From Leptogorgia sarmentosa (lineage: Eukaryota): DNA of 64,000 bases. Positions 5,986-29,052 of the stretch are shown piece after piece; position 1 is the stretch's first letter, and each line of letters opens with the position of its first letter. The translations under genes and the position numbers were made by a program. Below the pieces are notes generated by a model that was not told the DNA's origin, made no database searches, and was given only the letters and a program-made list of their open reading frames with translations. The DNA is taken from positions 14,570,001 through 14,634,000 of the forward strand of contig OZ210885.1 of NCBI GenBank assembly GCA_964658305.1. The letters are read 5' to 3'.

Positions 5986-5990
5986 CACAG

Positions 5991-6443
5991 AACATTTTAA
6001 AAATCTCAAGATGTATTTTCCATGGTGGATATCTTTGGATGACTACTCAGTCAGCAACGTCACAACTGGAGCCGCAAATCATGACTGCCATCCAGTCACA
6101 GGAACAAACGAGCGTTATAGCATGTACGACAGGTTCCATGAAAAAAACTCCAATAACCCAGATGATGTGCTTAGAAGGCTAGCGATATGCCCACAACTTT
6201 ACGCCAACGTCAATAGCGAGTCGCATGAGCAGCTACACAGTGTCCTGAATAAGGACAATTACTTTTTGAATATGGTGCAGCCTGCAACTCACATTTTCAT
6301 GAAAAGACTTCTGGTTAATCTACGAAATGAGAAATTAAACAATCAGGAAATTAAACGCCAACAGCAGATCTTACAAAAACATGGATTAGTAGGACACATT
6401 TCTACTGATTCATTAGGAAGAATCACAATAATCGGGGATGCAG
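5991..6443 (+). CDS. Exon encoding the C-terminal part of an HMGXB3-like / KDZ-superfamily transposase
   Basis: Acceptor tttcacag| at 5990 and donor |gtatgt at 6444. Translation HPVTGTNERYSMYDRFHEKNS...LRRLAICPQLYANVNSESHEQLHSVLNKDNYFLNMVQPATHIFMKRLLVNLRN...TDSLGRI carries KDZ-type D-x-F-H and NSxxxEQ motifs. It also has the HPVT / L.CP.L / ATH...RL pattern I recall from the HMGXB3 C-terminus. Confidence 0.72.
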
Positions 6444-9400
6444 GTATGTATGACAGAATATTTACGCGATAATTAAAATACAGCAGCTGTAGGGTTTGAG
6501 GGTGAATATGTTTGGCTTGATATTCCATTGGAAAAATTAAATTGTAATGTCAAAACAATATCAAATTCATACATAAAGAATCACATGCAGTATCCATTTT
6601 TTTAATTACACAAATCTGGTTTAGAATCATCTAATTCGAATGGTGCAACTGAGGACCTGGTTGGCTGCAGTCCAGATATAAGTCAGTTTATAATTAGCAA
6701 CACTGATGATAGAGAAAGATTGATCCAAGACTTTAACAAAGAGCTTGTGCCTCGCGTAAGTATACCTGACATAAAGAAAACCTTTACGACAACACAAGTG
6801 ATTTATATAGGAATACAATTAAAGACTTTTGATAATCAGAATCATGCTTCCATTTGGGGTTTTTTTACATGCTAAATTTATTACCTAATCAAGCGGAGTT
6901 GTAATTGGCTAGGTCGTTCCTCTCCCGTAATTGTAAATATGCTTGGAGGTGGTCGGTAATTGGCTAAATGCAAGAGCTAAGGAACATTTTCTGATTTTGT
7001 AAATTTGTATATTTTGGACAAGTTATGGCCAAGACTTGTGATTGTTTTCATCATGTTTTAACTTTATCAGCAACTGTTGGTCCATGCGTTTTGTAAATCT
7101 GAACAACTGATACTTCTTTTAAATATAGGGACTGCAAAATCTACCACAACAAAATCGTTGTTACATAAACAGTTTGCTGCAATGCCTCGCGTCATGTGTA
7201 TCTGTGGAAGCGACTGGCGGTACTGAACTTATGTGGTTGTTGTATTATCAGGCACGAACCGACATCAGCGTCAAACAGGAGGACATTTCCCAGAAATTGG
7301 AGTCTTGTTTTGAAACTAGGTGGTAATAATGAGGCCGATGACCCGGGCGATTTCCTTTATAGCCTTCTTCGCTACACCTCGTCGTTAGGAGAGGAAACAC
7401 TGCAAAAGTAATATAAACAAGTTATTTATAATAGTCATCTTTTTCGCAAAATTGCACCTCGTGCTAACCCGGAGCAAGTCGCATTTCCTATATGTTAATA
7501 AATATTATGTCCGCTGTTTAACTAATAGCAGAAACTGTGTTATTTGTATAATTTCAGTAAATGCTGTGGAATTGAAAGGGTACAGTTGGTATGTCACGTA
7601 TGTCACAACAAACGTCAAGAAATACCATTTACAATTTTCAATCTTCCAAGTAAACCAGAAGTTCTCCATGCAACGGTAGAGGAAATGTTGCTGCAGTATT
7701 TTGAACACGAAGACAAACAGTTGTGCGGAGCATTTTGGTAAGAATCGTGGACAAAAACAGTGCAATAGTAAATAGCATTAACTAGCATTAACATTTTTCT
7801 TCCTTGTCTATCTCTTCTGTGGTGTATATTCTGAATAGCCTTGTGCGCAAGTTTAATTGATAATGTTGATCCAATGAAATGTTATCCCAAAATGTCACTG
7901 TTAATTGGCAAAATATGTTAAAATAAGCAATAAATTAACTTTGGATTGACATACAGTTTTGAAAAATTATGAAAGTAGTAGTTGGCAGTTTCTGGGCTGC
8001 TCTTGTTTACAGTACTGTATGTTGGGGAAATAAAGGTCTTCGAAATTACTTGGATTTCAGAAGAAGCAAAATTTTAATGTACTTTCAAAAGCCCTGCATG
8101 TGAAATGTTCAATTTCAAAGAATGTTACACTTAAAATGTAGCTATTTTGGTTTATGCCAACATGGTTTCTATGCAGCTGGGAATTAGGCCGTAGGATGAG
8201 CATCGAAAAGATGCAGTTCCGTTGCACCCCTCGTGGAACTAAATCATTTTCACATGAATGAATAGATAAAAACTTACTTTATCAGAATCCGTTGCTCCCC
8301 AAACGAAACAGGTGCACAATTGGGAGAAATATCCACTCAAAGTTTACTATTTTCGTGCCTTAAAATAGACAAACCGCCATTGTTTTGGTGAAAATACGCA
8401 TGCGCATATCAGCTATACTCGCACTGCGCACGCGCAGATAGGATATACGGATTTTCCCTGTGGGTTTTCCCTAATTTTTTCAGTAAAAACAACATAGAAT
8501 GACAGAATAGACATCAAAACTTGTGATATTAACGAATAAAAAAGAACAAACACATAATCACAAACACATATATATATTCAGTGGCTACTGTTTCAAAATA
8601 TCGTTTTGATCATTTGATGTCAAATTCTACTTGTACATCCTAATTCAAGCAGTGAACAACGAAGCAGGGTAGCTCGCCGGCTCGCACCAGTGAAGGACCT
8701 TTAACTGTAAAAGAAGGTGCAGGCACCAACTGGAAAGCTGTTATGATGGATAATCATATATAAATTAGTCATTACTGAAAAAATCCCTCTTGTTGCATTC
8801 CGAGGGCCTAAGCTCAAAACCAAAATACATTATGTATTCTACAGAAAGCTATCTAGGCTTTTGTCTGGAAAATTTATATTTCTGTATATATTTGAACTAT
8901 TACATAATTAAGTTGTTATCTGGAATGCTGAGAAAGAAATGAATCTGAGACTTGAGCACCCTCAGTGGCCTAACGGAGGGGTGTCAGGGGCCGGTTGTAT
9001 AAAAACGTAGTTAAAGTTAACGACTATTTAACTACAAAAAGGCTAGTTAAAAAGTAGTTAAGAGCTTTATACAACCGGCCCCAGGGTGTCAAGTGACGGG
9101 GCTCCCAGCGTTAAGGGCCCCCGACAAAAATTACTATAAAAAAATTGACAGCACAATTCTAAGGAATTCAATTACGAAAAACAGGCAGATTGGAAGCTAG
9201 CTGTTGTTGAGTTGCTCATTAATAATGTTATTATGTTATAATTTCACGAAAAACCAAGCTGGCATGCAAAGTCAAACAAAAACGTGCAAAGACGCGCGAA
9301 TCCGAACTTTGCATAGGGTTTTCACAGTCCAAATTGACAAAGTCTGTACGAATGGGGATTTTAATATATTTCCAATAAAATGCAAATATTATTTGTGTTC

Positions 9401-12400
9401 AGGATCCTTCGGAAGCATAATCTCAACAATGTAATAGACCTTATTCTATAGCTATTAATATCTAAGTGTGGAGATTGCGATTGTGTAGACATAAGTTGTA
9501 GTAAATCCAGCCTATTTTGGTAGTTTTAGTGGAGCAAAGGGTGGAGCAAGGTGGCGTTACGCCACTGAGCACCCTTCACACCGACACACCTAAAACCCTG
9601 GCCAGCCCAGACCATATCTTCAGAGTATACATAATAGAAACAAGAACAGTATAATTATACTTTATCAATTGGATTCGCATTATCTATATTTACACGTATA
9701 TCTAGATCTCCTGTCATGGGCAGGTTTAGCAGTCATCGTGGAAGGTAAAACGCACCTGGCGCTAATACAGCCACAAATCTATAAGACAAGTAACTTCGGC
9801 ACGAAAAACCAGTATATGGATTTTGAAATAAAGAAATAAGGATTTGAGGATTTGAGCGTAGGCCTTTAACTAACAAGTAGAATCTTATTTAGGCGATACA
9901 TAGAAGGCATGATTTAAAAGAGCCAAACGTATCTTGCCTAGTTGTCAAATAATCATTGAAATTTTTTTTGAGACTTTCTTCTATTTTATAAATATCCTTT
10001 GAAAACGTTATTGTGCAAAGACACTTGTCATATCTTATCTATTTATGTACTTTATGAATGATTCAGTATAGTACCGCGTCATGTAGACTTACCAGCGTTA
10101 GCAGGTGGAGAAAGTCGAGAAACAGTGTTTTTTCAAATGTTTCTGAGTTTGGTAGAAAAAGTTTGGTTTTCCGGGAAACAAGGAAGAGGATTTGCAATAA
10201 GAGCCAGTATTTCCAGATGTGGGAGGCAAGGAAGAATAAAAGCATTTGAACAAACATTGAAAATCTCCTTGATTTTGTACATATACAGTGGGTCTACACA
10301 AAAAAGGCTACCCTTTGAATTCAACCGCTAGTGCCGCATTCTGTGTTATTTCAGCTGAACAAAAATCCACTGCTTTCTCATTTTAAGCTCATTAATAGGG
10401 AGTTAAAACCATTCCAATTAATAAGCAAAAATAAATTTTAAAATCAAATTCAAATTCAATTTTCGTTTCTTTTCATTGTAAAATCGGGGAAAACCACTGC
10501 GATGTACTAAGATAATATAACAGCTCAGTGGAAAAAAATAAGGGAAAACCCACAGGGGAAAACCATTTGTCTTGTGCGCCTGCGCAGTGCAAATTTGGCA
10601 GACGTGCGCATGCGTATTTGCTACCAAAACAATGGCGGTTCGAATATTTCAAAGCGCGGAATTAGCAAACTTTGGGAGCATTTTTCTCCCAATTGTGCAC
10701 CTGTTTCGTTTGGGGAGCAACGGGTTCTGATAAAGTAAGTTTTTATCTATTCATTCATGTGAAAATTATGTAGTTCCACGAGGGGTGCAACGGAATTCGT
10801 TTTCTAAGCATCTTTTGCCCGCTCATCCCACGGCCTAAATGCTTAACATGCAGAATGAGATTAAACATTTACTTTCATTTTGCCATTATTAGATATCGGC
10901 AGCATTTTGATAAAAATGGAAAATTGACACTGACTATATTGACAACAACTATCAGGACTTCAATTTTCTGTTAGAGTGACATTTTGGCAACTGTGTTGCA
11001 ACATATGATAACGAATTACAGACTATGTATCACTTTACCATAGCACCTGCAGGAAAAACGAAAAAGACGTCGTAGAGTTGCGACAGCCAACTGAACTGCC
11101 TCAAAATTTGATTTGCAACATCCTTCCAGTAGACAAGAGTGGAGAAAAAGTACGAAGTCGTGTTAAGCTACAAAGAAGCATTGGATTTCACGACGTTTTC
11201 GGCACAAGGCATTCATACGGAATATCTGCTTTTATGGTACGTTGCACATGATAGCACATACGTACAGCCAAATGGACCGTTCCTTCATTACGAACAAACT
11301 TCTGAATTAGGAAAATTAATTACTAATCCTCACCACAGCTGGACGTCTTAAGAGCATCCTAAATCTGGTAAATATGGTTGCAAAAATAACTACAGTCCAG
11401 TGAAGTTTGCAGGTTTTGTATATATTATACTTTGTTAAATATTAAATAATATATCTTTATATAGACACACTATGGGAATGATGCCAACGATGGTCACTTT
11501 AACTGTACGGTCCTCCTACGTAATAAGCAATGGTTTTTAATAGACGATAATCTAGTTGAACAGCGTCGGATGTGTGAAACAGATTGGTATGGAGACGTTT
11601 ACATGCTGTTTTACAGTGCAACAGGTTTGTCCGTAGTATACATATATAGTAATTTGCATTAAAAGATAATTACAGTTAAAAATAGTCTTTAACTCATTTA
11701 TAGGTGGTTTCAACGAGGAGATTGTGAACGATGAAAGTATATCAAAGCAAGGTAAAATAGGCCATTTTTCAACTTTGTAGAGTGGTAATTTAATATTGAA
11801 ACGTTGAAAATACTGTGAATATTACACGGAAAACTAAATGTTATATATCAAAATCTAAGTTAGTCCTTCGTAAAAATACAATGCTTCTTATTTTAGTGCA
11901 ATAGCTGTTATAGGTTTTACGTTGTATGATATCAAACAGGATATAGTTTTTTGGGGGACATCCGATATATAGTTCCTATGGCTTACTCACCATATCAGCA
12001 ACTCAACGTAACTTGCAGGTAGTGAAGACGTCGCGGTCCTGACGAGTCCGCCTCAAACATACCAGTCACAAGGATTGGAGGAAGAGGTTTGTTATTTTGT
12101 AACTCTTGCACTGAAATTTGAATGTTGGAGCCGAAACATAAGCAAGACCATGATTTATAACCATCCTTAACCCCTGCTAGGTTGAGACATATTGGAATTT
12201 TAAAGAGGAACAGCAGCTGGACCAGGTTGTGTTGCATATCAACGGAATGCCACTGAGGTTTTATTGTATACCACTGAGGTCGATTGTTGAAGGGAAGGTC
12301 GTCATCTTCGAATCCCAGAGGGAGTTAATTTTGAATAAGTTTAGCTGCAATTCTCAGAGGTGAAAGAATGCGTTTTTCACCGAGATTTTTCAACACGCTC

Positions 12401-14787
12401 GCGTTTGCCTGATTTTCTCCCATATTTTACAAGAAATATGTCATTCAACTGCTAAGACCTTGATCTTTATGACCATGCAAAAATCACGTTCGTACACCCA
12501 GTAATTAACGCACAATGGCATGCCAAAGTTGGATTACCTTTTTTTTGAGACACCCTGTATATGGTTCCCATTACTAACCAACTTTTCCCTTTATGGAATA
12601 TACAGTTAATAAACACCTTTCTGGTGGACCTAAGAAGGAGATCTCAAATAAAAGTAAGTAAACGTAAATTATTAGTACACTACATTACATAAAAAGAGAG
12701 ACATGTACATATAGAGTCTTCACGTGCTGGTAGTTACATTAAATCATTGAACTAAATCTTTAGAAAGATATTCAAATAGAAGTCATGAGCAGCTTCATGT
12801 ACACAAAACTGTGTAGATATGGTGTCCATTCTATGACCAAATGGTTTCAGAAGGTAATCATAATACAGTCGATCACATACAATTTATTTCATATCCAAAT
12901 AGCTAATATATCTATATTTTGATATGAAATAAATACCGTCAAAATGTTGATATCTTTTAATAATTACATTTTTTAGAAACTATTCTCTGAAAAAGATCTA
13001 TGTTTTATTCCATTAAACAGCCAGAATAACCACTGGAATCTTGGGGTAAGTGATTACATAGTAATTGATTAGTATAGATAAGACTTTAAAACAGTCGATA
13101 TTTATCTTTAAAGCTGATTTTTAAAGCTCATCCTTCATAGAATTTTTTTTATAAAACCTGATACTAATTTTGCATTCCTTATATAGGGAAATGACTTGGT
13201 ATTAATTAGCCAATAAATAGTGTGATTCATGCCGTTTTATATATGATGTAGCTAGCTTCTCGCAGAACTTTTATGAATGATTTTATTTTTTATCTGAAAA
13301 TTACTTATTCACTTACTAAACAGTAAACACTAGAAAAAACACGTTTTCGCACGGTTCGTTCCTTTTTTCGTATATTTCTCAATCACCAGAGGAAATGCCT
13401 TAATCTACTTATTCTCTCTCATGTTTTGAATCAGATATAGTCAAATCCTTAAGTTTAAACTCTGTACACAAATTAATACAATTAGGAATACCACAATAAT
13501 TCCATTTTATATTACAGGTGATCGACCTCAATTCATGTACAATCTTACTATACGACCCAATGCTAGTACCAGGAAAAACAGAAATCTTTCACAAAAAGAT
13601 AAGGTATCTATAATATATGGTAAGAAAACTTGCATTTTATAAGAATGCATTACTTACAAAATATCTAATTAATTTCTAGATCACTAATGGCGCACCTTCT
13701 ATCAGAGAGCCAAAACACATCTCTACCTGAAATGAAACATTTCAAAAATTCCACAATGGGAGAACCAAGACAACTTGATGGAAGTTCATGTGGGGTTTTT
13801 GTATGCATGGTGAGTTTACTGAAAATAATCACAATTAACCGAACTGTAGAGTACTGCTGGCAAACACCAAAAATCAGTTGATTTTAATTCCTTGAGAGTA
13901 TATATTGACCCTCACTGTTTTTTCTTAGTAATGCCTTCCCCGTGTTTACATTAAACAATACCCCACCAAAATGTTAATTTTGACAAAATTATCTCTAATT
14001 TTGTTACAAAGTACAACTACTAATTTTAAATGTCGACATGTATTACAGTCATCTATCTTACAGTCTCTAACTTTGAAATTCTTGAATTTAATAATTTATG
14101 AAAAGATATGATAATGAACGAAGGTGAAAATTCCAGAAAAAGAATCAAGTTTCCCAATGTTTCTTTCTTTGGATATACTGCTCCTTTTCTTGAGGTATTC
14201 ACTAACATGTTTCAGGGTTTAGGCTGCTGATTATTTGATGAATGGATTACAAGTTACATTCACTCAGGTAAAGTGATTAATTCAGTCTGCAATTATACAC
14301 AACAACCGGCCCTGTCAAATAGTACTGTTAAAGATATAGATGTATGGTGGTTTGTTACTTTATCAACAGTTGAACTGCTTTATTCTGTTTGAAATGCAGG
14401 ATGACATACCAATATTAAGAAAATATATGGCTTTCCAGCTGGCAAACCCTGCTACAGACCTTCAAATACCAAAGAGGTCAGTTATATACAATGAATAAAA
14501 TTATCTGGCTGGCCATTGTTTCAGAGTTGTAGTAGGTAATTATACCACAGTAGGAATTTAAATGACTAATATCCTACCTGAGAATAATTAGGTTTAGCAC
14601 TTAGTGTATTTTCCTCAGTATGTTAATAACTAATCAGCAAGCTGTTTGATTTTATAGACTTGCTGTGAAGAAACAAAAAAATGAACATGACCATGCTGCT
14701 TACACAGTCAAACTATCAAAAGCTGATAGTTTCAGAGTCCAGAGTGCAATAGTATTCGTACTATTAACTTTCTATTCAATAATGTGA
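5991..14787 (+). CDS. Multi-exon gene 1: HMGXB3-like/KDZ transposase C-terminus + USP (peptidase C19) + Ulp1/SENP (peptidase C48); 5' part missing, probably a damaged copy
   Basis: Hand-built GT-AG exons: 5991-6443, 6625-6755, 7129-7407, 7558-7737, 11044-11236, 11465-11624, 11704-11751, [gap], 12606-12653, 12764-12853, 12977-13045, 13518-13603, 13680-13809, 14223-14267, 14400-14476, 14658-14787(TGA). Intron phases are compatible throughout, with two exceptions: one +1 frameshift near 7310 and an unresolved link between 11751 and 12606. The last exon is less certain. Confidence 0.82.
6625..11624 (+). CDS. Ubiquitin-specific protease (USP/C19) domain over five exons
   Basis: Cys box LVPR|GLQNLPQQNRCYINSLLQCLA; QQD-box-like EADDPGDFLYSLL; Zn-finger Cys pairs CHVC...CGAFC/TC; LPQNLICNI; His box SYGISAFM|THYGNDANDGHFNCTV...WFLIDDNLV...VYMLFY. 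Catalytic Cys, His and Asp are all present. Confidence 0.88.
8963..9567. mobile_element. hAT-type MITE nested in the 8185-10837 element
   Basis: TIRs CAGTGGCCTAAC / GTTACGCCACTG, with a perfect 8-bp TSD AGCACCCT at 8955-8962 and 9568-9575. Confidence 0.88.
8988..9081. mobile_element. 94-bp PIF/Harbinger-group MITE (CWG target) nested in the hAT MITE
   Basis: Perfect 16-bp TIRs GGGCCGGTTGTATAAA / TTTATACAACCGGCCC, with TSD CAG at 8985-8987 and 9082-9084. Confidence 0.88.
11940..12559 (-). mobile_element. Truncated Tc1/mariner-like element end (single TIR + TA) between the USP and Ulp1 exons
   Basis: ttttttgagacaccctg|ta at 12541-12559 reads TA|CAGGGTGTCTCAAAAAA on the minus strand, a typical Tc1/mariner terminus. 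No partner TIR was found. A similarly oriented degenerate copy lies near 11947-11969. The left limit is uncertain. Confidence 0.5.
12606..14476 (+). CDS. Ulp1/SENP-family (C48) protease domain over seven small exons
   Basis: LINTFLVDL | VMSSFMYTKLCRYGVHSMTKW | LFSEKDLCFIPLNSQNNHWNLG | VIDLNSCTILLYDP | PRQLDGSSCGVFVCM | AADYLMNGLQVTFTQ | DDIPILRKYMAFQL. The His-Asp-Gln-Cys catalytic set is intact and the intron phases match. Confidence 0.9.
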
Positions 14788-15429
14788 CCATAATTAACCA
14801 ATCAAACGACCTGAATGTAATGAGGTATTATATAATATCAAATAACAGTTATTATAAACGAGAAAGGGAACCTGGCACGCAGTGGGTTAAATTATCTATG
14901 AAAAATATTATTAAGTAAAATATGTAATAATTGTTAATGTTGTTTAATTAAAAAAAATATTTTTGGAACTTGAAGAATCTTTACTTAACGTGAGAACCTG
15001 TGGCAGGTTTTATACTCCCTAATTGTCAGTGAATCAACCTGCACAATTAACCTGTCATAGTTTGAAAACAACTTACAATCTCTTCAAAATACACACAGTA
15101 AAACCTGTCCAGTCTGTTATTAAATCCAGTAAATGAATTTGGCATGGGAGGAATGTGACCACGTTTTCATTGGAATAAAAGAATGCAATGGCAAATTTTT
15201 GTATCACTTTATATCTACATATTTTAATACAGTCTCTGACTATTAATTTGCTTGGCTAATAAAGAACTACGCTGTCATTAGGACCAGGTGAATCAACCGA
15301 ATGAAACAGACAGTGACTCAGAAACTTCTAAGAGAACTTCGATTTGATATTGGGAAAGCAGTTGCCGAGGCATTTTGCAGATGATGATCAATTAATAATA
15401 TACAAATACTTACTAGTCGAATATGGGGA

Positions 15430-15980
15430 TGTCACGACTTCGCGTAGATGACATTTTCATTTTCCATGGCCAAAGACGCTATGAATGAGGGCGCATATAT
15501 AAACGCAAAATAAGCGCCATGAATTAAGGGCCATGAATTTAATCTGTGCGTCATCATAGAACAATCAATTGCAAGCATAATTCCATATATGGTACGAAGG
15601 GGTGCTCTCGCGTTTTGGGGTCTCCTCGTGTGGGTCTTCTTGCGTAATTGCACTGTCAAACCCTGCTCCGAAAACCAACAAGAATAACCAAGGCCAGGTC
15701 ACAAAGTAACCAGCTTGAGTCCGTGGCGTGGTGGCATTTGTGGGTCCTGGTGTCGAATTAAAATCCAAAATGGCTGCACAAGAAAGCGCCACATGAATAT
15801 TGATCATATTGATGAAGATATGAATATTCATCAGACAAGAACCAGTGAGGTAATTAACTATAGTAATATTCATGTAATAAATGTTACCGCATTGAAGTTA
15901 ATGGCATTATTCACAAAAAAATTGTTAAGATAGTTCGTTAATGAATTACTAAATAGCATGGTTCGTAAATGAATCATACA
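15430..15980. mobile_element. Candidate solo LTR (551 bp)
   Basis: Begins TGTCACG and ends TCATACA (TG...CA), flanked by a 4-bp direct repeat GGGA (15426-15429, 15981-15984). It is GC-richer than the flanks and has no convincing ORF. Confidence 0.5.
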
Positions 15981-15984
15981 GGGA

Positions 15985-16172: not shown

Positions 16173-17432
16173 TAGCAGAATGGGCCTGAATCACTGGGAT
16201 ATGGCTGTGTGCCTGTGCAATATGGCATTCTTGACGACGTAGCAAGATATATTTGAAATAACTGAATACAAAAATAAAGTTGTTCAGTGATAAAAACGCT
16301 TAAATTAACTTTCTAGTTAGAAAGGATTACCAAAGTACGACTAATCTTCATTAGTATTACTAATTATAATAAAATAATGTAGGTAGTGTCAAATCTGCAA
16401 CAATGCTAATGAGCGTGCATTCAAACAGTGTTATGCACACATCTATCTATTGAATTACAAATATACTAAAATAACATACATAAAGATGCTTGGCTTGTTT
16501 GCCTTTGCTCAGATAAAGGGAGATGTGTTGTTGTTTGGCAACATTTGAGAACACATGTTATTACATGTAAAAAGAATTGTAATTTTGATCTTAATAAAGT
16601 TGTTTGTTGCCGTAATATTCTCATATATTATGAAAGAAATCGTGCTAGTGTTATTTGGAATCTTCTGTGAATAGATTACTGCACATGTGGTAATTTTCAA
16701 TGATTGAAATACTTAGAGAGTGTATTTTTAGTGTTATTTTTTTAACTTTTTCAGTTCCTGAAGTGCATAACCATTGACATTAGCTATCTGAAAAGACCAG
16801 TATGATAAAGCTACTGCAATAAACATTGAGTCGGCTATTCTTATTGCAATTACTTCTGGCTGTCATTTATCCAAAGCATCCTCTATTTGTCAATGTACGT
16901 CTCAAGGCTACAGTTTTAATGAACTGGAACAGCTGTATATGAGCAGATAACTTTTGAATAGTTTCCAGATTCCCAGGACATCTGTATCTGTTTGTTGAAA
17001 ATTACATCCAATAAATCAGCTTAAAGAAGGTGATTTAATTTACATGGGGTTAAATTCAAGAAAGATACCATCAACCATGTGTCCAAGCAACAAGTCTGCA
17101 TTATTACCATTCAACTGAAGAGGCAAAGTGTTTGTCAGAGCAAAATTTCTTCACTGCTACTTTGGCCACACTTAGTTACCATACTGCTGACAACATGTAG
17201 GAATCCAGTCCATTTAATGATCATTTTATACAAGAATCTAGTTTAATATTGATCTTGCAAGGTATTATGAGTACTGCTTATTTGGAGCATTAAAGCTGAG
17301 TTTCAGATTGTACATAATCCCAATGATTCAATAGTTATACAGTGAATGTGTTACTTATATGCCATTATTATGCGATGGTTTCGTCGAAAAGCAAATATTC
17401 TCGAGTTTTAGGCACAAATGAGGACTTCCCAT

Positions 17433-17700
17433 TGTTGGGAATATGGCGGTGTGGGTGAATGTCTTTTGTATTGTGTATAATTGTATTACGTAATTGAATT
17501 CTGTTCTGTGGATGTATTGTTCTGTATTGTGTAATTAATTCAAGATGTATGTAAATGTAAATTAGCTTGTGTATATAAGGTTGAACTAGACAAACTTAGG
17601 TGTGATTTTTCTTGTGATATATCTGGAGTTGAGGAATATAAGTATTTAAGGAGCAGTTGGAGTCTTTCTTTTTCTTATGATATCGTGGCAGAACGCGACA
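17433..17700 (+). repeat. 5' LTR
   Basis: TG...CA, 268 bp. I count 6 substitutions relative to the 3' LTR. Confidence 0.96.
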
Positions 17701-17702
17701 TT

Positions 17703-17720
17703 TGGCGACCCAGACAGGAT
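17703..17720 (+). promoter_or_regulatory. Primer binding site (probably tRNA-Arg)
   Basis: TGGCGACCCAGACAGGAT lies 2 bp after the 5' LTR. TGG pairs with the tRNA CCA end, and the rest resembles the complement of tRNA-Arg 3' ends (from memory). Confidence 0.8.
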
Positions 17721-17755
17721 TCAGTTGAGCTATAATTTACTTGACTGATCGGAAA

Positions 17756-19188
17756 ATGCCTTTGACCCGAGCGCAAGCTGCTCAAGAAGAGAGAAACGGC
17801 AATGCAGACGAGTCAGAGAATAAAGAGGTGGACCTTGGACAAGCTCGCTCGCCGTTTGAAACAGAGTTACTGGCTACCGTGCAAGAACAGCGAGACCTGT
17901 TGAAGGAATATAAAGATCACGAAGACAGCAGAGTTTCCGAGGTGGTCACTATTTTGAACGGCACAATGCAAAACCTATCCGACGAATTTGCTCGTGTTTG
18001 TGACCAGAACAGACAGCTAAAGACTGTTGTTTTCCAGTTAAGCGATCGTGTGGACGCCCTTGAATCCGAAATGAAATTAAGCCAGGAACGATCAGAGAAA
18101 ATTAATGCCGGAGTGTTCGCTTCGTTACACCGATTAATTAAAAGCGAGCTTCAAGAAGAATTTGAATCGATGTTGGCGTCGCGTATGAAGTCAGTAAATG
18201 AAAGCTTGTCTACCTGGTTAAATGTAACGGGACGATGCTGATCACAATCTGGAAATGCGTCAACGCCATGTTGTCAGCTCGATAAAGAGAAACAACCAAC
18301 AGAGTGCAATGCTACGTCGACTTGTGGGGCAGATTCTTCGGCTGGTCGCCCGGTTCAGAAACCTGCAATGTTTGACGGACGTAGCTCTTGGGAGGCGTAT
18401 GTGACGCAGTTTAAAATTGTCGCCGAGATTAACCAGTGAGTTGGTCCAGATAAAGCTGCATTTTTGGCGACAAGTCTTAGAGGTCCAGTGCTGACGGTGT
18501 TATCAAATTGCCGGCCGAAAGTCATGTCCATTACCCATCGTTACTGGCTGCATTGGAAAGCCGCTTTGGAAACAAAAGGCAATCTGAGCTCCATAGAATG
18601 AAGCTACGGAATCGTGTTAGGCGTCGCGACGAAACTTTGCCAGAATTGGCGGCAGATATCGAAAGACTCGCTCGTCTCGCTTCCCCGGAAGCCCCTGTTG
18701 ATGTTCTCGAGACTTTAACAAAAGATCAGTTCATAGATGCTTTGTATGACGATGAAACGCGCTTAAGAATTGCTCAAGCAAGACCTACAACTCTAAGAGC
18801 CGCGCTGGGAATCGCTTTGGAAATTGAGTCGTTTAGCTTGGCTGCACGAAGAAGAGCTAGACCGGTGAGAACGGTGCACGAGACATCGAGTGACGCGAAC
18901 ACTGAATGCTTGGTGGACTGCCAGGAGGAAATAATCAAGACGAATAGCGAGTTTTTAGCCGAGTTGAAGAAAATGACCTCAGAGCTTCACCAAGTAGTCA
19001 AGAGTGTGAATGGAAGAGGAAGAGGAAGAAATCACGCTAGTTCACCGCCAAGAGGAAAAAGAAAGTGTTGGACATGTGGCTTGGAAGATCATCTCCAACG
19101 GGACTGTCGGCTGTATAACGCTGAGAAGGAACGTACTGAGTCGGGAAACGAGGAAATGTCGGGTCAGAGGGGTGGGGCCCGACAGTAA
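17756..19188 (+). pseudogene. Gypsy gag, disrupted
   Basis: ATG at 17756, a coiled coil, KPAMFDGRSSWEAYVTQF, LESRFG, DQFIDAL and the CCHC knuckle CWTCGLEDHLQRDC. Stops and frameshifts occur near 18240, 18438 and 18505. Confidence 0.9.
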
Positions 19189-19199
19189 GAGAAGACACC

Positions 19200-22100
19200 T
19201 CAAGTGGCCAGAGACTTTTACAAAGGACAGACGGCCTTTGTGTAGAAGGAAGACTCGAAGAAAAAACTATGCATATGGTTGTAGACACTGGAAGTAACAT
19301 CTCAATCGTCGCTCCTCAACTGTTGCAGAACATTGGAAAAGACTTGTCGTGTGTACAACCGGTTCCGAACTGCTTGAAATCTGTAACTGGGGAAAAGTTG
19401 GGGGCAGTTACGCTTAAATTTGATATCGGTAACCGAGAAATCCTACAGTCGTTTCATGTGGCAGAAATTAGTGAATCCTGTATTTTGGGGCTGGACTTCC
19501 TGCGGCAACAACGGTGTCACCTCGACATTACGAATGGAATGCTATTAATGGGAAATGTTCAAGTTTCTCTTCTGCATTCTTCGTCGGACGATTTGGAGAG
19601 GCTTTGTTATCGAGTGGTAGCTCTTGAAGACATGAATATTCAACCCCATACTGAGGCTGTTGTTCCTGCGAAAGTGGTTGACTATACTGGCAAGAGTGGG
19701 TGGGGAATCATTGAAGCAGCTGAAGAGGAATCTGTTCCTGGAGTCCTGATTGGTAAAGTTTTGACAAAATTAATGAACGAAACCCCAGTAGTTTTAGTGC
19801 AAATGGTTAATGTGACAGAAGAGAAAAGAAAAGTTTCAGCGGGAACTGACTTGGCAAAATGTGAGACTGTAAGTTTCGTTGTTCGTTCTGACTTGGAGAG
19901 TTGTCCTGGTGGTAGCGAAGAGTCCACAACGCTAAAAGAAATCCCAAAACATCTAGCTGAATTGTACGAGAGTAGTGCAAGAGATTTGGTCGATGAGGAG
20001 CAGAGAAATAAACTGTTCGGCTTATTATGGGAGAATGCTACTGTGTTCTCCAGTGACCCTTCGGATTTGGGAAGAACTGATATCGTGAAACATCAGATAA
20101 CAACTGGTTCAGCGAAGCCAATTAAACAGCCTCCGAGACGGTTACCTCTCGCGAAAAGAGATGTGGCTTGCCAAGCGGTGGACAAGATGCTGAAGGAAGG
20201 AGTTATTGAACCTTCAACGAGTCCTTGGTCCTCACCGGTGGTGTTGGTTGCAAAGAAGGACGGCAGCCTTCGGTTTTGCGTAGACTATCGCAAGCTCAAC
20301 GAGGTGACGGTTAAAGACTCTTACCCATTACCCAGAATTGATGACACCCTCGATGCCTTGAGTGGTTCAATGGTTTTCGACATTAGATCTCAAGTCGGGG
20401 TATTGGCAGGTTGCAATGGATCCTGCCACCAAGGAAAAGACAGCATTCAGCATTGGTGGGGGTTTATGGCATTTTCGGGTAATGCCATTTGGGTTATGCA
20501 ACGTCCCCGCCACATTCGAATGATTAATGGGTCATGTACTTGCAGGGTTACCATGGAACGTCTGTCTCGTGTATCTGGATGATATCATCGTCCATGGTAG
20601 ATCTTTCTCCGCGCAGCTAGAAAACTTGCAGAAAGTATTCTTGTGTTTGAGAAAAGCCAATCTGAAACTCTCCCCTGAGAAGTGTAATTTGTTCCGCCGT
20701 GAAGTCAAATACTTGGGTCATATCATCAGTTATAAGGGCGTAGCAACAGATCCCGCGAAGATCAACAGTAGAGACCTTAAGATTGGCGTATTTTTTTCAC
20801 CGCAAACGTCAAGAAGCCACGTGACGAGTGCTTGCGGTAAATTTTGCCGTTTGCGGTCCACGTTTCAACGTGAGGAGGTGCTTCCAGAGGTAAGTCGCTT
20901 ACTGCAAGTTTTTTTTGCTATTATCGCTGTCAAAATTCAGATAAAATGCTTAAAACGTATTTCCTAATTATATTAACAAATCAAATATTTGATTTATATC
21001 CTTTAAGCGTTTATTTTAAGTCATTTGTGAAGCAAAAACATACATATTGGGCCGCTACCATCTTGAATTTTTCACACTGCAGTAAACCCACAGATCTTAA
21101 TCTTCTAAAAATCGTATACCGCTGACGGCAACGCCAACGTACGACTGCGGTTCGCCGTAAACGCCAATCTTAAGGTCTCTAGTGTCAAGGATTGGCCTCG
21201 TCCAACGTGCCTGGCTGAATTGCGAAGTTTCTTGGGACTATGTTCCTACTACCGAAAGTTTATACGGAATTTCGCAGAAATTGCAAATTCACTCACTCGA
21301 CTAACACAGAAGGATGTGAAGTTCGCTTGGGAATCGGAAACTGAGAACGTGTTTCAACAATTAAAATGGTCTATGAAGGAACGTTGATATTAGACACAGA
21401 TGCGAGCGGTGTCGCTATCGGGGCTGTCTTGTCACAAAAACAAGGCTCCGAAGAAAAAGTCATCGCATATTTCAGTCGCTCACTTAATTGAACACAGCGC
21501 CAGTATTGTACAACAAGACGGGAATTACTAGCTGTGGTAAAATCACTGGCTCATTTCCACCCATATCTTTACGGAAGAAACTTTGTTGTGCGCACAGATC
21601 ATTCTTCTCTTCGGTGGTTGGTTAATTTTAAGTACGCAGAAGGTCAACTCGCACGCTGGTTGCAGAAAATTCAACAATACGATTTAAAGCTTGAACATCG
21701 AGCCGGAAAATATCATCTCAATGCCGATGCATTGTCCCGACGACCATGTCTTGAGGAACATTGCAAGAACTGCGATAGAGCCGAAGCAAAAGAACATTCG
21801 GCTAGAGAAGCTCATTGTGTAGATGAAAATCATAGATTGACCTTGGTAACCAACCGAGTGAGAAGGCATTCACCTGTTGAGGACCGAGATATTGGTGATT
21901 TGGTAGATGTTGACCTTATCAAAAATTTGGGACCGCAAGACATAGTAAAAGCCCAAGAAAAGGATCCCGACCTAGGACATGTACTGGAGTGGGTGAAGAG
22001 AGATAATGAAAGACCGCAGTGGTCCGAAGTCTCGGCTATTAGTGAAGTGATGAAGAATTGCTGGGCACAATGGCACAGTTTGTGTCTGCGGAATAATATT

Positions 22101-23242
22101 CTATATCGAAAATGGGAATCATCGGACGGTACGACAACCCGCCTTCAGCTGATGTTGCAAAGTCGTTACGAGAATAAGTTTTGACACATCTTCATAACCA
22201 TCCAACCGGGGCACATTTTGGAATCAAGAAGACGTTGGAAAGACTTAGGAAAAAATTTTACTGGCCTCGTTGTCGCGAAGATGTGACGCTCTGGTGTTCT
22301 ACTTGTTTAGAGTGTTCGTCGCGCAAAGGTCCAGTGACACGTACGAAAGCTCGGCTAGGAAAGTACGTGGTTGGTATGCCGATGGAGAGAGTTGCGATCG
22401 ATGTAACGGGTCCTTTGGTCCGGTCTACGAAAGGTAATCGTTACTTACTTGTGGTCATGGATTATTCTTTGAAGTGGCCAGAGGCATATGTTCTGCCAAA
22501 CCAGGAAGCAAAAACTGTGGCTACAGTTATAGTGAATGAGTTTGTATGCCGATTTGGAGTTCCACTTTAACTGCATTCTGATCAGGGAACGAATTTCGAG
22601 TCAGCCATTTTTCAAGAAATGTGTTCATTACTGGGCATTAACAAAACACGAACCACACCTTTGCATCCAGAATCGGACAGAATGGTTGAACGTTACAATA
22701 GAACATTAAAGACTCAGCTTTCCTTGTTTGTTGCTGAACATCAAAAAGATTGGGACAAGTATGTACCATTACTTCTCATGGCATATCGAACGGCAACTCA
22801 TGCTTCTACACATTTCACCCCTGCACGACTGATGGGTCAAGAAATTAGAACCCCAATTTATTTAGTTTATGAACGACCCCTGATCCGGAAGTTGTCGAAA
22901 GTTACTCTGACTATGTTCAGGAACTGCAGGAAGATTTGCAAGTGACACATGAGTTCGCGCGAAAGAATATTGAACAGAGTTTCGAGTCGATGAGGAAACG
23001 TTACGACGTGAACAGTGCGGCAGGTATATTTAACGAAGGCGATCGAGTATGGTTATAAGAAGAAAGAAGAAAGGAAGAAGTGTGAAATTGATGCAGCCTT
23101 GGGAAGGGCCATACATTTGAACGATCTTGTTTATAGAATTCAGCAAGGAAGGCATGGAAAACCAAAGGTGGTTCATTGGAATCGTTTATGGGTATATTGC
23201 GGTGATCAAGCAGAACTTTGCAATGAGGAGACGAGCAGTTAG
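19200..23242 (+). pseudogene. Gypsy pol (protease, RT, RNase H, integrase), disrupted
   Basis: Protease [32 protein letters not shown] and YLDD. RNase H DTDASG..IGAVLSQ, GQLARW, NADALSR. Integrase H..P...H...C..C, AIDVTGP, HSDQG.NFES, VERYNRTL. Multiple frameshifts, stops and a MITE insertion. The start is approximate. Confidence 0.93.
20770..21180. mobile_element. 411-bp MITE inserted in the Gypsy RT; 3-bp AGT TSD (Harbinger/PHIS group, Pangu-like ANT target)
   Basis: Perfect 20-bp TIRs AGAGACCTTAAGATTGGCGT / ACGCCAATCTTAAGGTCTCT, with AGT at 20767-20769 and 21181-21183. Removing the element restores DPAKINSVKDWPRPTCLAELRSFLGLCSYYRKFI. Confidence 0.93.
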
Positions 23243-23292
23243 GAATTGCATGCACCATCATTGGGACAATTTGATGGTTTAGTTGGGGGCAA

Positions 23293-23560
23293 TGTTGGGA
23301 ATATGGCCGTGTGGGTGAATGTCTTTTGTATTGTGTATAATTGTATTACATAATTGAATTCTGTTCAGTGGATGTATTGTTCTGTATTGTGTAATTAATT
23401 CAAGATGTATGTAAATGTAAATTAGCTTGTGTATATAAGGTCGAACTAGACAAACTTAGGTGTGATTTTTCTTGTGATATATCTGGAGTTGAGGAATATA
23501 AGTATTTAAGGAGCAGTTGGAGTCTTTCTTTTTCTTAGGATATCGCGGCAGAACGCGACA
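23293..23560 (+). repeat. 3' LTR (preceded by the purine-rich tract agttgggggcaa)
   Basis: 268-bp direct repeat of 17433-17700. Confidence 0.96.
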
Positions 23561-24658
23561 CCATCGTACCTTGCAAGCTCAGTGATATTGAGGTTTATGA
23601 CTTCAAAGGACAACCTTTTCTGTGCATATGATAAGTTTTGCTCAATGCTCACACAGTGTAAATACCCTTTCTGAGTGGGTGGAGTGTCTCCACAAACCTC
23701 ACAATGTGTAACCGTACGCCCTGTGCCCATGTTCAGTTGAGTTGCCATTATGGTACAATCGGAAGGGCACATTACTATACATTTTGTATAATATATGAGA
23801 AATAAATTTTCATATTTCTAAATATGGTTGAGCGATAAAACAGCTCTCGCCGTATACAGTCGCTATCAAGAAAGGTTTTTAGTGAAAAGATACAGTACAT
23901 ACATACTAGGTTAAATTGTTGCTTCACGCACTAAGTTTAGATGAAATCGTAGCAGTCTGATGTTCGAATTTTGGTTACGTTCATATAATATCATTCTCGC
24001 TATTGAGTATGCATACTTTACTTCTTTATGTTATATATTTTCGTATACTTGTACTAGAAAACCTGTTTGACAGCGACTACTTTTTCAACTTTTTCATATG
24101 TATGGTATGGTATTCCTCTAGGATGAAACAGGTTGTAATAGCAACTTTTTGGGCATATATACATATTAGACATATATTCATAGTTTTTGCCACAAGTATT
24201 TAATTAGTATCATTTTTCTGAACCAAAGTTATTCTACTACAGATGATATATAGTTATATACTGTTTGTTGAATCCTGAAATGAAATAAAAGTGTTTAAAA
24301 CAGTTTACGGAGTCTCTGTTGTTTAACTGCATGTATAATCAACTTCTTTATCATAAACTCGATGAACGACTTAGTTGCAGTGAAAGGTATGCAATTTCCC
24401 GTCCCTGCTGCAGTCGTCTGCTCATGTGATTTGTGAGTCAGTTGCCTGGATAACTGCTATCATATTAACAAGGATAATAATATCAACTGGTGCCAACTAA
24501 CCCTATTTCAAAGACTACGTACAATCATGACTGTGACGTTATTGTTTTAATGTAAAAATGGGAAATGCTGTACATGTCGACTACATACCAAACAGTCTAC
24601 AGAAGTTACAACCATCGTTCGTCTTACTTTTTCTGTACCCTTAAATTTGAATCTTCAG

Positions 24659-27600
24659 GATGCTGAGCATCAAGCAGAGAGAGAGCTACCAAGGAAAAAA
24701 TACAAAACCGGTTTTAAACAGAGAGTATCGGAGCGTCGTGCATATGACCGCAGTAACCTGAAAACGTTGAATAAAAAGGTAGACCCATATTAAGTGACGG
24801 TCCCGAAAAGCTCACTCTAATGTTTTTGAAATATTGATATGCCAAACCAACTAGGTATATGTCGGTTTTATCATCCAATTTAATGTTAAATAATCCAAAT
24901 AATTGCAGCTAAACGGATGGTATGAGCTAACAAAATGCCCTACAGTCGCACTGATGCTCATTGGTGATAAAATATATTATTCTGGTAGGTCATGATATAC
25001 AAGTTTACAAGATTTGTATGCTACCGTCTTTTTCATTTGTCCTGTCGGAAAGACAACTGCTCTTGCTCAGATTTTTGCCACATACATTTTTAAACATCAT
25101 GCAGTTATCTACAGTGTAAGACCTTCCGAAACAAAGCCTTGTTGTATGATGTTGCCTCAAGTGAGTTTAAGCTTGGTTAAAATTTTCATCCAACATTGTG
25201 CCATATTTGTTGGCCCGACAATGTTGCACGATGTTGGCTTTGTTTGAAGACAAACTCAAGGCAAATAATTGGCAGAAGATAATGGGAAATGTCAAATTTC
25301 GTTGTGCATGTTAAACCTATTCATACAATATATCTTCACTCGACAATCTTATATGTATGTTAGCTATGAGTCCGCTAGAATAAGGTCATGGGTCTTAACA
25401 TATCCGACTGTAAATTCATATTGTTCTAGGCCCCGAACAATTCAGAGAATTTGCAAACAATAGTTCCGTCAAACAGGTCTTTGGCTCTGTGGTGGTGAAT
25501 CCGACAATTAACGAAAACACTGGTACTATCAGCTTTTATTTACTCCAACTGAATAATTGACTTGTACAGTTATTGAAGACTTGTACTGTTATCTATAGGT
25601 CACACACAATGTTTTGCAAATGCCCAACTTTTCTAAACTTTTCATTTTATCAAGATGGTTCAGGTGACCAATGCCATAGAATTGTATTGCCCGATGATTG
25701 GAGGGAGTTTAATGTTTTTTCCAAACGCAAACTAGTAATTGCGTTGGTTACAGATAATGGTATGTCTAACTGGTTTATTATATAGCCAGCTCGTAAAATG
25801 CTTGCACAATACCATAATATACAACATGTAAATGCAGATTAAAGGAATTATAGAAAAAAAGTGTTTTTGATTTAAGGAACAAAAAGTGCTAACTGGCGAC
25901 AAACCATTAACCGTCCTGTGTGGTGGCCCAAAAATATACGTTTCGACGATCCGAACAACGGCAAACCTCGCTTATCATCCCAGGAGCTGCACAAAATTAT
26001 TGGGCCATACAGTTCACATTTTGTGTCTGTTGATGCGCAGGTAGTAGTGGATAGTGATCATGGTGACAAAGGTTCTGTGGAGATTGGTTCTGGGGAGGTG
26101 GGTTCTGGGGAGGTGGGTTCTGGGGAGATTGGTTCTGGGGAGATTGGTTCGGAAGATATCACTGTTGGTGATATTGGGGGTGTCGATGGCAGAGATATTG
26201 TGGACAACGGAGCGTCAAGGTCAACCGCTGGTGGGGAATATGAACAGGGAGTTGCCGGAATAAGGAGCCTGCTGAAAGTAAGTGTTGTGGCAAATACGTA
26301 AATACAAACAAACTTATGTAAAACCACAACTTATGTAGGAACAGAATGTATGCCGTCAGACGAAAAGTAGACAGTACTAGTACCTGTAGAGAAACTGGTA
26401 AAATGCATGTGTTTTATTCTCCCCAAAGTTAATATCGTACTACCAATTAATATATATTTTCAAGAAATGCCGCACAGTTTATGACGATGATGATGCGATG
26501 AGGATACTTCAGTTCCTCCGGCGTCTGACAAACTGGACAGATTTTGTCTCCAGTATGACGGAACTAGCACGGAAGAAAGGTCCACTACAGCCACACTCAA
26601 AGTTTGTAAAGCCACTTGATGAGCAGGAGTACACTCATATTTGGAATGTTCAGAAAAGGTGTTAATATGTGCTAAACATAATTTTTTTTTAAATATACGA
26701 AACCCGGGTAACATCATCATCTTTTACTGTAGTGCACGATGTGATGTGCCGAAACGAATCCTCAAAAATGGGTGGGAGCCGGTTAGTGTCACTGGAGATG
26801 GAAATTGTTTTTTTCGCTCGATCTCCAATGTACTAACCGGTAGTGAAGACTACTATCTTATGTACAAACTGGCCCTGATGCATCATGGCTGTTTGCATGA
26901 GCAGTGGTACAGAAAGAACGTTCTGGTATGTTGAAAGTTCAAAATTTTATTGTATCACAGTTACTGTGTCGCAGTGAGGATTTTAAGCATGCATAAAACA
27001 ATGCGCTTTGAGTCACAAAAAAGATACAGTCTAACTGGCGGTATCGGCAAACAAATTTATAATCCTGAAAATATAGAAAGAACATACTGAGAAGAATAAC
27101 GTTAACATCTCATATCAACTGAAGATACGTGGAAAAAAAGGAAAAATATTATGTACAATTAATTGAAAAAAAAACGTTGCTTGTTTCTCTATATTTTGAA
27201 TTAGAATTTGATCAACGATGACCTCGACCTCTTTTTGCAAACTATCACAGACGACGAGGTTTTGAGTGATGTAAATGCCGACTTGTCCGATGAGGATAAG
27301 TTTCTGGAGGTTTATAGGAGAGAAGTAATGAAAACTGCCATCGACGGCCGTTATTCAGGTTGTATTTACATGTAGTGAAAATTGAAAACGTAATAGTTTC
27401 CTACTAATTCTATTCACAGGGCGGTGTTTCATTAAAATTCAAGGATCATATAACATTACAATACTGAATTATTATAGGGCTGTTGTCACTGATCCTCATC
27501 TGTTAAATTAACAGGGTATCTTCAGGTTCTTCTAATGGCAGGAACGCTGCAGCGCAGAATTGTCCAGCACTGCACTTTTCCAGGCATGGATTTTTACAAT

Positions 27601-29052
27601 ACGGAGATAATCCCGATGAATTGCAGTGAAGAATGTGTCAGTTCACCTGCTATTAACATCTTGTGGTGTTCCTTAAGCGGTGGTGTGCGCAACCATATCG
27701 TGCCACTGAAAAAGTGTCGAGGCAGTGAAACTGGTAATAATGAGTAAAAAAATATTCATCACCTATAAATTTATTGTACACATCATTTTGAAATCTCCGC
27801 GCGTGTTAATTAAAGAAAGGAATTTACAATTCTTAACCACAATCTGTATTTTTTTGTCCTCGTACTTACATACGCACCTTGTTCCAAGTACTTATATACA
27901 CGACAGAGACACACGAACGATAGATATATAGTAATGAGACATTCTTATTAAAAAATATTAAAATTTAAATGAAATATGGTGAGCAACTGCCGGTTTTATT
28001 ACGAAATATATCCTCTAAGCAATTTCTTTGGTAACTATTTTTAGATTTTCAATTTTTCATAAAACTGTTTTAGCTAATGTATATCGTTCGTGACTGTCTT
28101 TCGTGAAGACAAGAAAGAAATACCAATGTTCATTTTCACCTGTGTCCCGTATTTCAGTAGAGTTATTATTTTTTTAACCAATCATATATCCATATATCCT
28201 GGTTAACTTAAGTCCGAATGTCTTCAAAAATTTTTGTAAAGAAAATAGCTTACAGGTAACTTCACTTTATGCACATATTGCAATTGGTATGTTGCCGCAG
28301 CACTTTCCATTATACTGTATATTTAAATATCTTGTATCATCCTTATTCCATAGTGAATTAAATATTTTAAATCTGATAGAGAAATTCTCACAAATTTATA
28401 CAGAAAGTAACATAGACGCAGGAAATATAATACTGTATGTAATACCTTAACACATTTCCCCACTTATTGTAGGCTTTTGTAAAGGATATGGTACGAGGGA
28501 AGATAAGAAGTCGTCGCATGGATTATATAAAAACTGGCTCATCTGCATCATTGAGACGGTCTACCGGACTTGTTCTCGACAACGACCAAACTGTACGTCT
28601 TGAAACCATTATTTCTATAATATCTCAATTGATTTAATGCAACATAGATTATCCTCGGCATCTAAAATTGTTATACCAAATTGATATTATGTGATGTAAC
28701 ACAGATTGAACTAATGATGGAGAAAATTGACGAAATCATCAAGGAAAGTGATTGTTGGCCTGAAAACCTTACACGTTCAAGAAGCAACATCGTCAATTTC
28801 AAGTTGGATGTGCTGATGCCGGAGGTATGAATACTTAAGATTCGCGTTGAACAGCGCACTGAAGCCATCATAATTTCACAAACATGAAACATGCATTCAA
28901 CCCAAACAGATGTTTTGTCTCGGATTATGTTTTTGCTTTGAATTACAGTGTAAATGACCACAATCTTATTGTTTTAGATTTCAATTTGGGTGATGTCTTC
29001 GTTTTCCAGTACTTCTAGATGCAGGGGTGACGAAGTTTTCAGTACATTTTAG
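24659..29052 (+). CDS. Multi-exon gene 2: NRF1/EWG-like PxWWP domain + vertnin-type OTU-like cysteine protease + PWWP3A/MUM1 C-terminal-like domain
   Basis: Phase-compatible core exons: 25430-25522, 25655-25759, 25877-26277, 26465-26658, 26733-26925, 27205-27358, 27515-27733 (or to stop 27747). Further open exons at 24659-24778, 28473-28592, 28705-28824 and 28978-29052(TAG). The links 24778->25430 and 27733->28473 and the start codon are unresolved. The core has no stops. Confidence 0.75.
26071..26160 (+). repeat. 15-bp coding minisatellite, ~6 copies (GSGEV/GSGEI)
   Basis: ggttctggggag(gtg/att) units at 26071, 26086, 26101, 26116 and 26131, with a degenerate unit at 26146. All lie inside exon 25877-26277. 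Confidence 0.92.
26733..27733 (+). CDS. OTU-like (vertnin-type) protease domain exons
   Basis: WEPVSVTGDGNCFFRSISNVLTGSEDYY (OTU Cys motif GDGNC) | YRREVMKTAIDGRYS|GYLQVLLMAGTLQRRIVQ...NTEIIP...INILW...NHIVPL (His motif). Confidence 0.85.

Follow-up and report, generated by a model that had tools for sequence, protein, structure and literature searches.

A broken KDZ/Zisupton-like transposase with predicted USP and Ulp1 domains in Leptogorgia sarmentosa, and the exchange of protease classes in its family

Why would a transposase carry proteases of the ubiquitin and SUMO systems behind its catalytic core? The question is raised by a 64,000-nucleotide stretch of the genome of Leptogorgia sarmentosa (assembly GCA_964658305.1, contig OZ210885.1, positions 14,570,001 to 14,634,000, forward strand), which we call the window. 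Its GC content is 31-47% (animal DNA), positions 1-29 kb are stacked mobile elements, and a 128-bp satellite fills the window from 29089 to its end. A first-pass annotation, made from the letters alone, described two genes among these insertions and assigned both to one large KDZ element with three classes of ubiquitin or ubiquitin-like protease. Our reading, which we consider fairly probable, is that gene 1 preserves, in broken form, the 3' part of a KDZ (Zisupton-like) transposase fused to a USP and a Ulp1. These likely served to free the transposase and its bound DNA ends of ubiquitin and SUMO. Gene 2 probably stands next to this element without belonging to it. Judging by predicted domains, the slot behind the transposase has been swapped among protease classes across the family: USP, OTU, Josephin, and Ulp1.

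Gene 1 and its damage

By its predicted domains, gene 1 (5996 to 14.8 kb) starts with what remains, on the 3' side, of a CxC4-type KDZ/Zisupton-like transposase and continues with a USP and a Ulp1. Its exons and the insertions in and next to it are listed below. X1, X5, X8, X9, and X12 are public sequencing-run contigs used to compare haplotypes; X8 and X9 were selected via gene 1. The comparison of copies draws on these contigs, on protein relatives, and on seven loci described below.

1659-5995, + strand: long interspersed nuclear element (LINE) of the endonuclease/reverse transcriptase type, 3'-truncated, context and not part of the element; RVT_1 E 5e-16 at 4661-5266
5996-6443, + strand: catalytic domain of the KDZ transposase, C-terminal third, with the motifs DRFHE and NSESHEQ, from relatives, Atlas, and fold alignment
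6625-6755, + strand: linker exon, AG/GT, open frame; joints 6444-6616 and 6752-7129 in X8
7129-7737, + strand: exons for the Cys box (QNRCY) and the fingers of the USP, from Pfam UCH and alignment to a lancelet USP
8185-10837, no strand: non-coding insert that has terminal inverted repeats (TIRs) plus a 3-bp target site duplication (TSD), AAT; empty-site joint 8181-10838 in X1
11466-11623, + strand: USP His box exon (GHF...IDD), from Pfam UCH, downstream of the 3-kb insert
12277-12596, no strand: high-copy repeat within the first Ulp1 exon; very high contig depth, loose ends at 12277 and 12596
12597-14476, + strand: Ulp1 domain, 7 exons, 184 aa, stop-free; GT..AG joints in X8 and X12
14657-14790, + strand: probable last exon; joint 14474-14656 in X8

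The transposase piece at 5996-6443 has no Pfam match. Its ESM Atlas features match, at 0.91, a cluster that is 71% PF18758, with a low recognition score, and a two-sequence profile of this exon retrieved 424 relatives at E<=1e-3. The piece aligns to the C-terminal third of the core of one relative, P0024, which is predicted to fold like a DDE transposase: the P0024 model (predicted local distance difference test score 82) has as its best structural match the DDE transposase of ISCth4 (Z 10.0, root-mean-square deviation 3.5, 208 aligned), with integrase cores next. Foldseek alone gave no match to this model at E<=0.001. A word-index search with the core piece returned 1 relative, and locus scans with the core found none in viral contigs; the sole core match in genome contigs (L008) was dropped as a wrong frame of a bacterial gene.

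Both USP boxes are present, with Asn, Cys, His, and Asp, and each has a Pfam UCH match (7129-7323, E 3e-4; 11465-11659, E 8e-6). The frame that runs from the core through the linker to the Cys box meets stops at 7324 after a frameshift, which breaks the USP in this copy. In the Ulp1 the catalytic residues follow in order: His (NHW), Asp (YDP), and Gln with Cys (QLDGSSCG). The C48 Pfam match is weak and confined to one exon (13669-13878, E 1e-3), and the joined exons are 40% identical over 124 aa (E 4e-15) to the Ulp1 of L001, a relative described below; from the joined exons, the predicted Ulp1 identity is firm. Where the window has the 12277-12596 repeat, X8 reads ...GWLNDN. The first-pass annotation had named all three domains, and they hold up with some amendment: only the last third of the transposase core is present, and the USP frameshift and the high-copy repeat in the first Ulp1 exon had gone unnoticed.

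Contigs of X8 skip six introns of the Ulp1 region at GT..AG, and those of X12 skip two of the six. Neither run is recorded as RNA, and the pattern is the one that spliced RNA gives. We therefore take gene 1 to be real and of the transcribed type. The intron at 13810-14222, after the exon with the Ulp1 catalytic Cys, is retained in X8 and X12 contigs while its neighbours are spliced in X8; its retention would remove the last Ulp1 helices.

The window copy of gene 1 is dead. Its 5' two-thirds are lost behind the LINE, it is frameshifted at 7324, and it holds two inserts. The LINE abuts the transposase exon directly, a junction that the first-pass annotation missed, and the last LINE open reading frame (ORF) terminates within the KDZ exon. 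The other exons of the family profile (upstream core, CxC4, SAP) are absent from 1-29100, including the regions upstream of 5996 and between the genes. The TIR insert lies in a larger stretch, 8014-10999, that is missing from other haplotypes (joint 8013-11000 in X1 and X5). A further joint, 6464-11936 in X1, X5, and X8, connects the intron of the core directly with the stretch that precedes the Ulp1, so that no USP lies between them; its short side has 23-25 letters, which gives it moderate weight. It hints at a second, USP-less form of gene 1 in the source species.

The TIR insert itself is polymorphic, ends in TAG...CTA, and contains nested repeats at about 8985-9140 and 8989-9550. We take its ends to resemble those of Academ elements.

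A family with exchangeable tails

What do the relatives carry behind the core? The counts that follow refer to the best 150 of the 424 relatives (E<=1e-3), 58 of which are longer than 400 aa; domains on these long relatives were called at a Pfam cut-off of E<=1e-3. CxC4 is present in 19/58. A ubiquitin or ubiquitin-like protease follows the core in 17/58 (Ulp1 8, Josephin 7, USP 3, OTU 1), and two of these 17 have USP+Ulp1. All 17 fall among the 36 long relatives with a tail of at least 200 aa, and no protease was found in the 92 shorter ones. Other tails are F-box/CxC7, PHD, and Myb/SANT, and P0069 joins a KDZ core to a tail of Ulp1, PHD, and SprT-like domains.

The Josephin (ataxin-3-type) fusions are P0105, P0106, P0113, P0119, P0122, P0135, and P0145, with P0130 a weak addition. 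The catalytic Gln, Cys, His, and Asp are retained in 7/7 aligned Josephin domains, one of which matches ataxin-3 (E 0.002). Named members come from oyster (XP_022316307.1) and ribbon worm (XP_074660589.1), and the P0135 cluster has 34 members. The tail types are dispersed over the core tree, and Josephin occurs in two starred clades that stand apart from each other.

The full order CxC4-SAP-core-USP-Ulp1 is found in lancelet proteins, namely P0030 (XP_066301003) and the three-locus cluster P0033, P0175, and P0176. The lancelet relative matches UCH at E 1e-23, and P0033 matches SENP1 at E 1e-15. Three Branchiostoma proteins annotated as 'uncharacterized' (XP_066301003.1, XP_078612960.1, and XP_078614543.1) share the core-USP-Ulp1 order of the window and are 36% identical to it over the core piece; the Cys box NRCY is common to the window and lancelet USPs. 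Unlike the window copy, these proteins are full length, with CxC4 and SAP, and they are not its sisters in the core tree.

The window core belongs instead to a starred clade (support 98/97) with L001, which has OTU+Ulp1, and L007, which has an F-box. These come from seven loci fetched for comparison (L001-L007), which amount to about four distinct sequences and among which only L007 reaches both ends. L001:7899-12870 encodes a KDZ core with a tandem OTU and Ulp1 (L002-L004 are about 80% alike), its OTU standing at the position of the window's USP, before the Ulp1. Five splice sites, each of matching phase, are common to the Ulp1 domains of the window and L001. A 111-bp tandem array lies upstream of the L001 gene. 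Given the window USP, the L001 OTU, and the USP-less joint in X1, X5, and X8, a single clade shows three states of the position behind the core and ahead of the Ulp1: a USP, an OTU, or nothing.

L007:149-11067 is a whole element of 10.9 kb with one gene, ordered C2H2-CxC4-core-(NGDC motif domain)-F-box/CxC7. Its TIRs (157-197/11019-11059) are 41-nt arms, 93% alike and 10.8 kb apart; an identical 8-mer stands 8 nt outside each arm, an 8-bp TSD, and the element has 15-bp subterminal repeats. A TSD of 8 bp is the Zisupton rule (PMC12730594). The NGDC motif before the F-box was not counted as an OTU, as Pfam gave no match and the OTU alignment was poor.

How does the family compare with known systems? 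In Zisupton/KDZ elements several exons encode a DDE transposase that bears CxC and SAP domains, and the elements have TIRs and an 8-bp TSD (PMC12730594, PMC9297572, PMC12062965). The present family is like them in its multi-exon DDE transposase with CxC and SAP, in the TIRs and 8-bp TSD of L007, and in the F-box/CxC7 tail of some members. It is unlike them in that this branch is marked by CxC4 and misses Pfam KDZ, and the window copy is without ends. Fish Zisupton has a SUMO-protease domain. Ginger1 elements join a DDE transposase to a C-terminal Ulp1 or OTU (not both), sometimes with a PHD, in an account that further mentions a single Trichomonas transposase bearing a USP (C19) domain, as well as Mutator elements bearing Ulp1 (PMC2836005). 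The same arrangement of a DDE transposase with C-terminal Ulp1 or OTU, sometimes with PHD, recurs here; Ginger1 has an integrase-type core, whereas here two proteases stand in tandem and four classes alternate. Helitrons carry VTD and OTU deubiquitinases (DUBs) that are interchangeable by class; zebrafish VTDs are active on K48/K63 chains, and anti-proteasomal protection was proposed (PMC9741609). The likeness lies in transposon-borne DUBs that replace one another between classes. However, Helitrons are rolling-circle elements with a different DUB class, and the available text of that work does not mention USP, Ulp1, or Josephin.

Our literature search found nothing that links KDZ/Zisupton with USP, Josephin, OTU+Ulp1, or tandem proteases; Iyer 2014, Bohne 2012, and Repbase lay outside it and may list such fusions. 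The available main text of PMC6446971 mentions neither OTU nor Ulp1. Ulp1 or OTU on transposases is already known, having been noted since 2010 without tested function. As far as the search reached, USP+Ulp1, OTU+Ulp1, and Josephin on KDZ transposases were not found described.

Gene 2 and the neighbouring repeats

Downstream of gene 1 the window contains a retrotransposon, gene 2, and the satellite.

17430-23560, + strand: Gypsy long terminal repeat (LTR) retrotransposon, a later insertion with a 4-bp TSD (CCAT); 271-bp LTRs 97% alike, Pfam
25430-27733, + strand: gene 2 core, 7 consecutive GT-AG exons, 452 aa stop-free, with an NRF1-like segment, a Gly/Ser repeat, and an OTU (GDGNC ... NHIVP)
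28473-29052, + strand: three 3' exons of gene 2, tentatively linked to the core exons, with a PWP3A-B_C-like segment (Pfam) and the stop at 29052
29089-64000, no strand: 128-bp satellite, starting about 40 bp past the gene 2 stop

Gene 2 is real and largely open. The OTU-like and PWWP3-C-like domains that the first-pass annotation saw in it are borne out by weak matches of one exon each: the OTU at 26623-26931 (E 0.012; range E 0.006-0.012, below the curated cut-off) and PWP3A-B_C at 28666-28827 (E 0.0025). By motif alignment the OTU has its DGNC motif and C-terminal His, and it is presumably of 'Vertnin-type'. The NRF1 identity that was also suggested is a lead only: the segment at 25877-26040 matches an Nrf1_DNA-bind cluster in the Atlas at 0.88, close relatives of the segment match PF10491 weakly (E 0.025 and 0.11), and a PDB sequence search gave no match. 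The NRF1-like exon recurs, 75-78% identical and with identical ends, in 13 proteins from another source on many contigs. Another haplotype is without 27260-27724, which includes the OTU His exon (joint 27259-27725). A word-index search with the OTU exon confirmed 0/9 candidates, and locus scans with the gene 2 alignment found no match in metagenome, genome, or viral contigs. Gene 2 cover is nearly nil in X8 and X9, both of which were found via gene 1, and hence gives no evidence on expression.

Two of the later insertions named at the outset are confirmed by empty sites in X1, namely the 2.65-kb TIR element and the Gypsy (joint 17428-23561); a solo LTR could not be defined. The Gypsy gag-pol is split among several frames. 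Its pol contains a 0.4-kb element with 25-nt TIRs at 20765-21185, also empty in X1 (joint 20766-21181). The ORF1 region of the LINE, at 2913-3329, encodes an SGNH/GDSL esterase-like domain (Pfam E 3e-6).

Contig depth, which is a hint and not a copy number, was in X1 70-75 for Gypsy pieces identical to the window, 234-291 for USP/Ulp1, 570-650 for the core bins, and about 100-165 for gene 2. The corresponding values in X5 were about 5, 8-10, 23-30, and 4-8.

The satellite, overlooked in the first pass, has an internal inverted repeat and variants of 118, 119, and 126 bp. It may represent either an element end that has expanded or an array of the centromere type. No degenerate copy of its unit was found in 1-29 kb or in L001-L007, and a profile gave no second site.

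Extent of the element and function of its tails

Do the two genes form one element? As first described, they are intron-rich and co-oriented within 13-14 kb: both lie on the + strand, spanning 13.6 kb together after removal of 8014-10999, 12277-12596, and the Gypsy, and 3.7 kb apart once the Gypsy is discounted. A search of 1-29.2 kb for a TIR, TSD, or subterminal repeat around the window copy gave none, in agreement with the statement that its ends are not visible, and a flanking pair of TIRs is not to be expected at a copy whose 5' part is deleted. One alternative is that genes 1 and 2 make up an element of 18-20 kb or more, with gene 2 as an NRF1-like DNA-binding partner bearing a third protease and the satellite as an expanded right-end subterminal repeat. 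It draws on the shared strand, the short distance and missing end structure between the genes, and the satellite directly behind gene 2, tandem arrays being frequent at KDZ ends; on the subterminal arrays of relatives (111-bp in L001, 15-bp in L007); on the ubiquitin-protease theme common to both genes; on the loss of the OTU His exon in another haplotype, as mobile cargo would show; and on the separate genes borne by fungal KDZ elements (PMC12730594). However, the sole whole relative, L007, is single-gene, and gene 2 is far less decayed than gene 1. The gene 2 exons matched none of the seven loci, only one of which spans both ends, and the gene 2 OTU is not close to the OTUs of KDZ proteins, matching family proteins over no more than a 30-residue OTU motif (E 0.2). 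The satellite unit lacks a match upstream or in the loci, and the region piles up unrelated insertions, so adjacency says little. We regard a single element as possible but doubtful. Its boldest form is somewhat unlikely: a ~20-kb two-gene KDZ transposon with three protease classes and an NRF1-like partner, whose right subterminal repeat grew into a >35-kb satellite and whose lineage, across animals, draws on USP, OTU, Josephin, and Ulp1 as a kit for counter-defence like that of viruses. More probably gene 2 adjoins the gene 1 element without being part of it, and we infer by analogy with L007 that the intact element would be a single-gene TIR transposon of about 11-15 kb with an 8-bp TSD. What stands of the original proposal is gene 1 as a KDZ transposase with USP and Ulp1, given the lancelet order, the predicted DDE fold, and a clade mate with TIRs and an 8-bp TSD; the membership of gene 2 is not supported, neither ends nor a match in the 7 loci having been found. 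The three protease classes do occur in the family, on the transposase itself and in alternative members.

Several results weigh against our reading. Pfam KDZ (PF18758) matched 0/58 long relatives at 1e-3, with P0186 at E 0.042. Of the long-tailed relatives, 19/36 have no protease at the cut-off, and the tail is thus not essential. The tree does not decide between common origin and separate capture of the window and lancelet USPs (approximately unbiased test, p 0.21), the monophyly of USP-bearing cores being neither supported nor rejected. L007 is the only locus long enough to be tested for a second gene, and its tail differs. Three further points also fit one element: no element end is visible between genes 1 and 2, both have a similar low contig depth, and the Gypsy-free joint in X1 places both sides next to each other in another haplotype.

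What might the tethered proteases do? Transposase complexes that hold DNA tightly are tagged by the host with SUMO and ubiquitin, which leads to their removal. A transposase that grips its DNA ends would be marked in this way, and a tethered protease would erase the marks in cis and so protect the transposase from destruction. Any protease class would suffice for this, which would account for the frequent swapping of the slot. The argument for cis protection, made from predicted proteins, rests on the fusion to the transposase, the kept catalytic residues, and the interchange of classes that share only the ubiquitin system. A like role was proposed for the Ginger1 Ulp1 and OTU (PMC2836005) and for the Helitron DUBs, whose activity is established (PMC9741609). 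More broadly, an anti-silencing or anti-degradation role of the proteases is plausible, and published work has put forward such a role for other transposons.

The tails could instead act in trans against host silencing: at the chromatin of the element itself, proteins of the piRNA pathway or of heterochromatin would lose their SUMO or ubiquitin. PHD and Myb/SANT domains also occur in tails, SUMO is tied to piRNA-guided silencing (bioRxiv 10.1101/533091), and the TET/JBP cargo of fungal KDZ elements was interpreted along these lines (PMC12730594). Yet fusion places the protease at the binding sites of the transposase, not at silenced promoters generally, and four interchanging classes with different usual substrates would sit poorly with one host target; we judge action in trans unlikely. 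It is quite unlikely that the proteases cut the long transposase polyprotein itself in maturation, or that they were taken up from host genes and ride along as neutral passengers. Ulp1-like proteases do mature viral and Polinton proteins, over half of the long-tailed relatives lack a detectable protease, and contigs of X8 and X12 keep the intron that follows the Ulp1 Cys exon. Against this, catalytic residues are kept across distant animals, four unrelated ubiquitin or ubiquitin-like classes plus an F-box indicate the ubiquitin system and not any protease, and neither USP nor Josephin is known to act as a maturation protease. A Ulp1-like protease gene is listed for Polintons in PMC10175614. 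An origin of gene 1 by domestication in the host (HMGXB3-like), in place of a transposon copy, would agree with its low apparent copy number and the spliced contigs in X8 and X12; with truncation, a frameshift, and inserts in this haplotype, a USP-less sibling form, and a TIR/TSD-bounded member in the same clade, we hold it to be very unlikely.

Cis protection by a tethered protease remains the reading we prefer, and the window copy itself is a dead pointer to the family in which it can be pursued. Intact proteins (the P0030, P0175, and P0135 clusters) and the whole element L007 provide material for asking whether ubiquitin and SUMO turnover limits transposition, and L007 would be a good template for an activity study. 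A further yield of the family is a set of USP and Josephin domains, compact and divergent, that lie outside the host repertoire. One transposase lineage with four unrelated protease classes in one slot, sometimes two in tandem, amounts to a natural swap experiment, in which lancelet, oyster, and ribbon worm alike preserve the catalytic residues. The pattern of swapping suggests that the element may need de-conjugation as such, and not the processing of one substrate.

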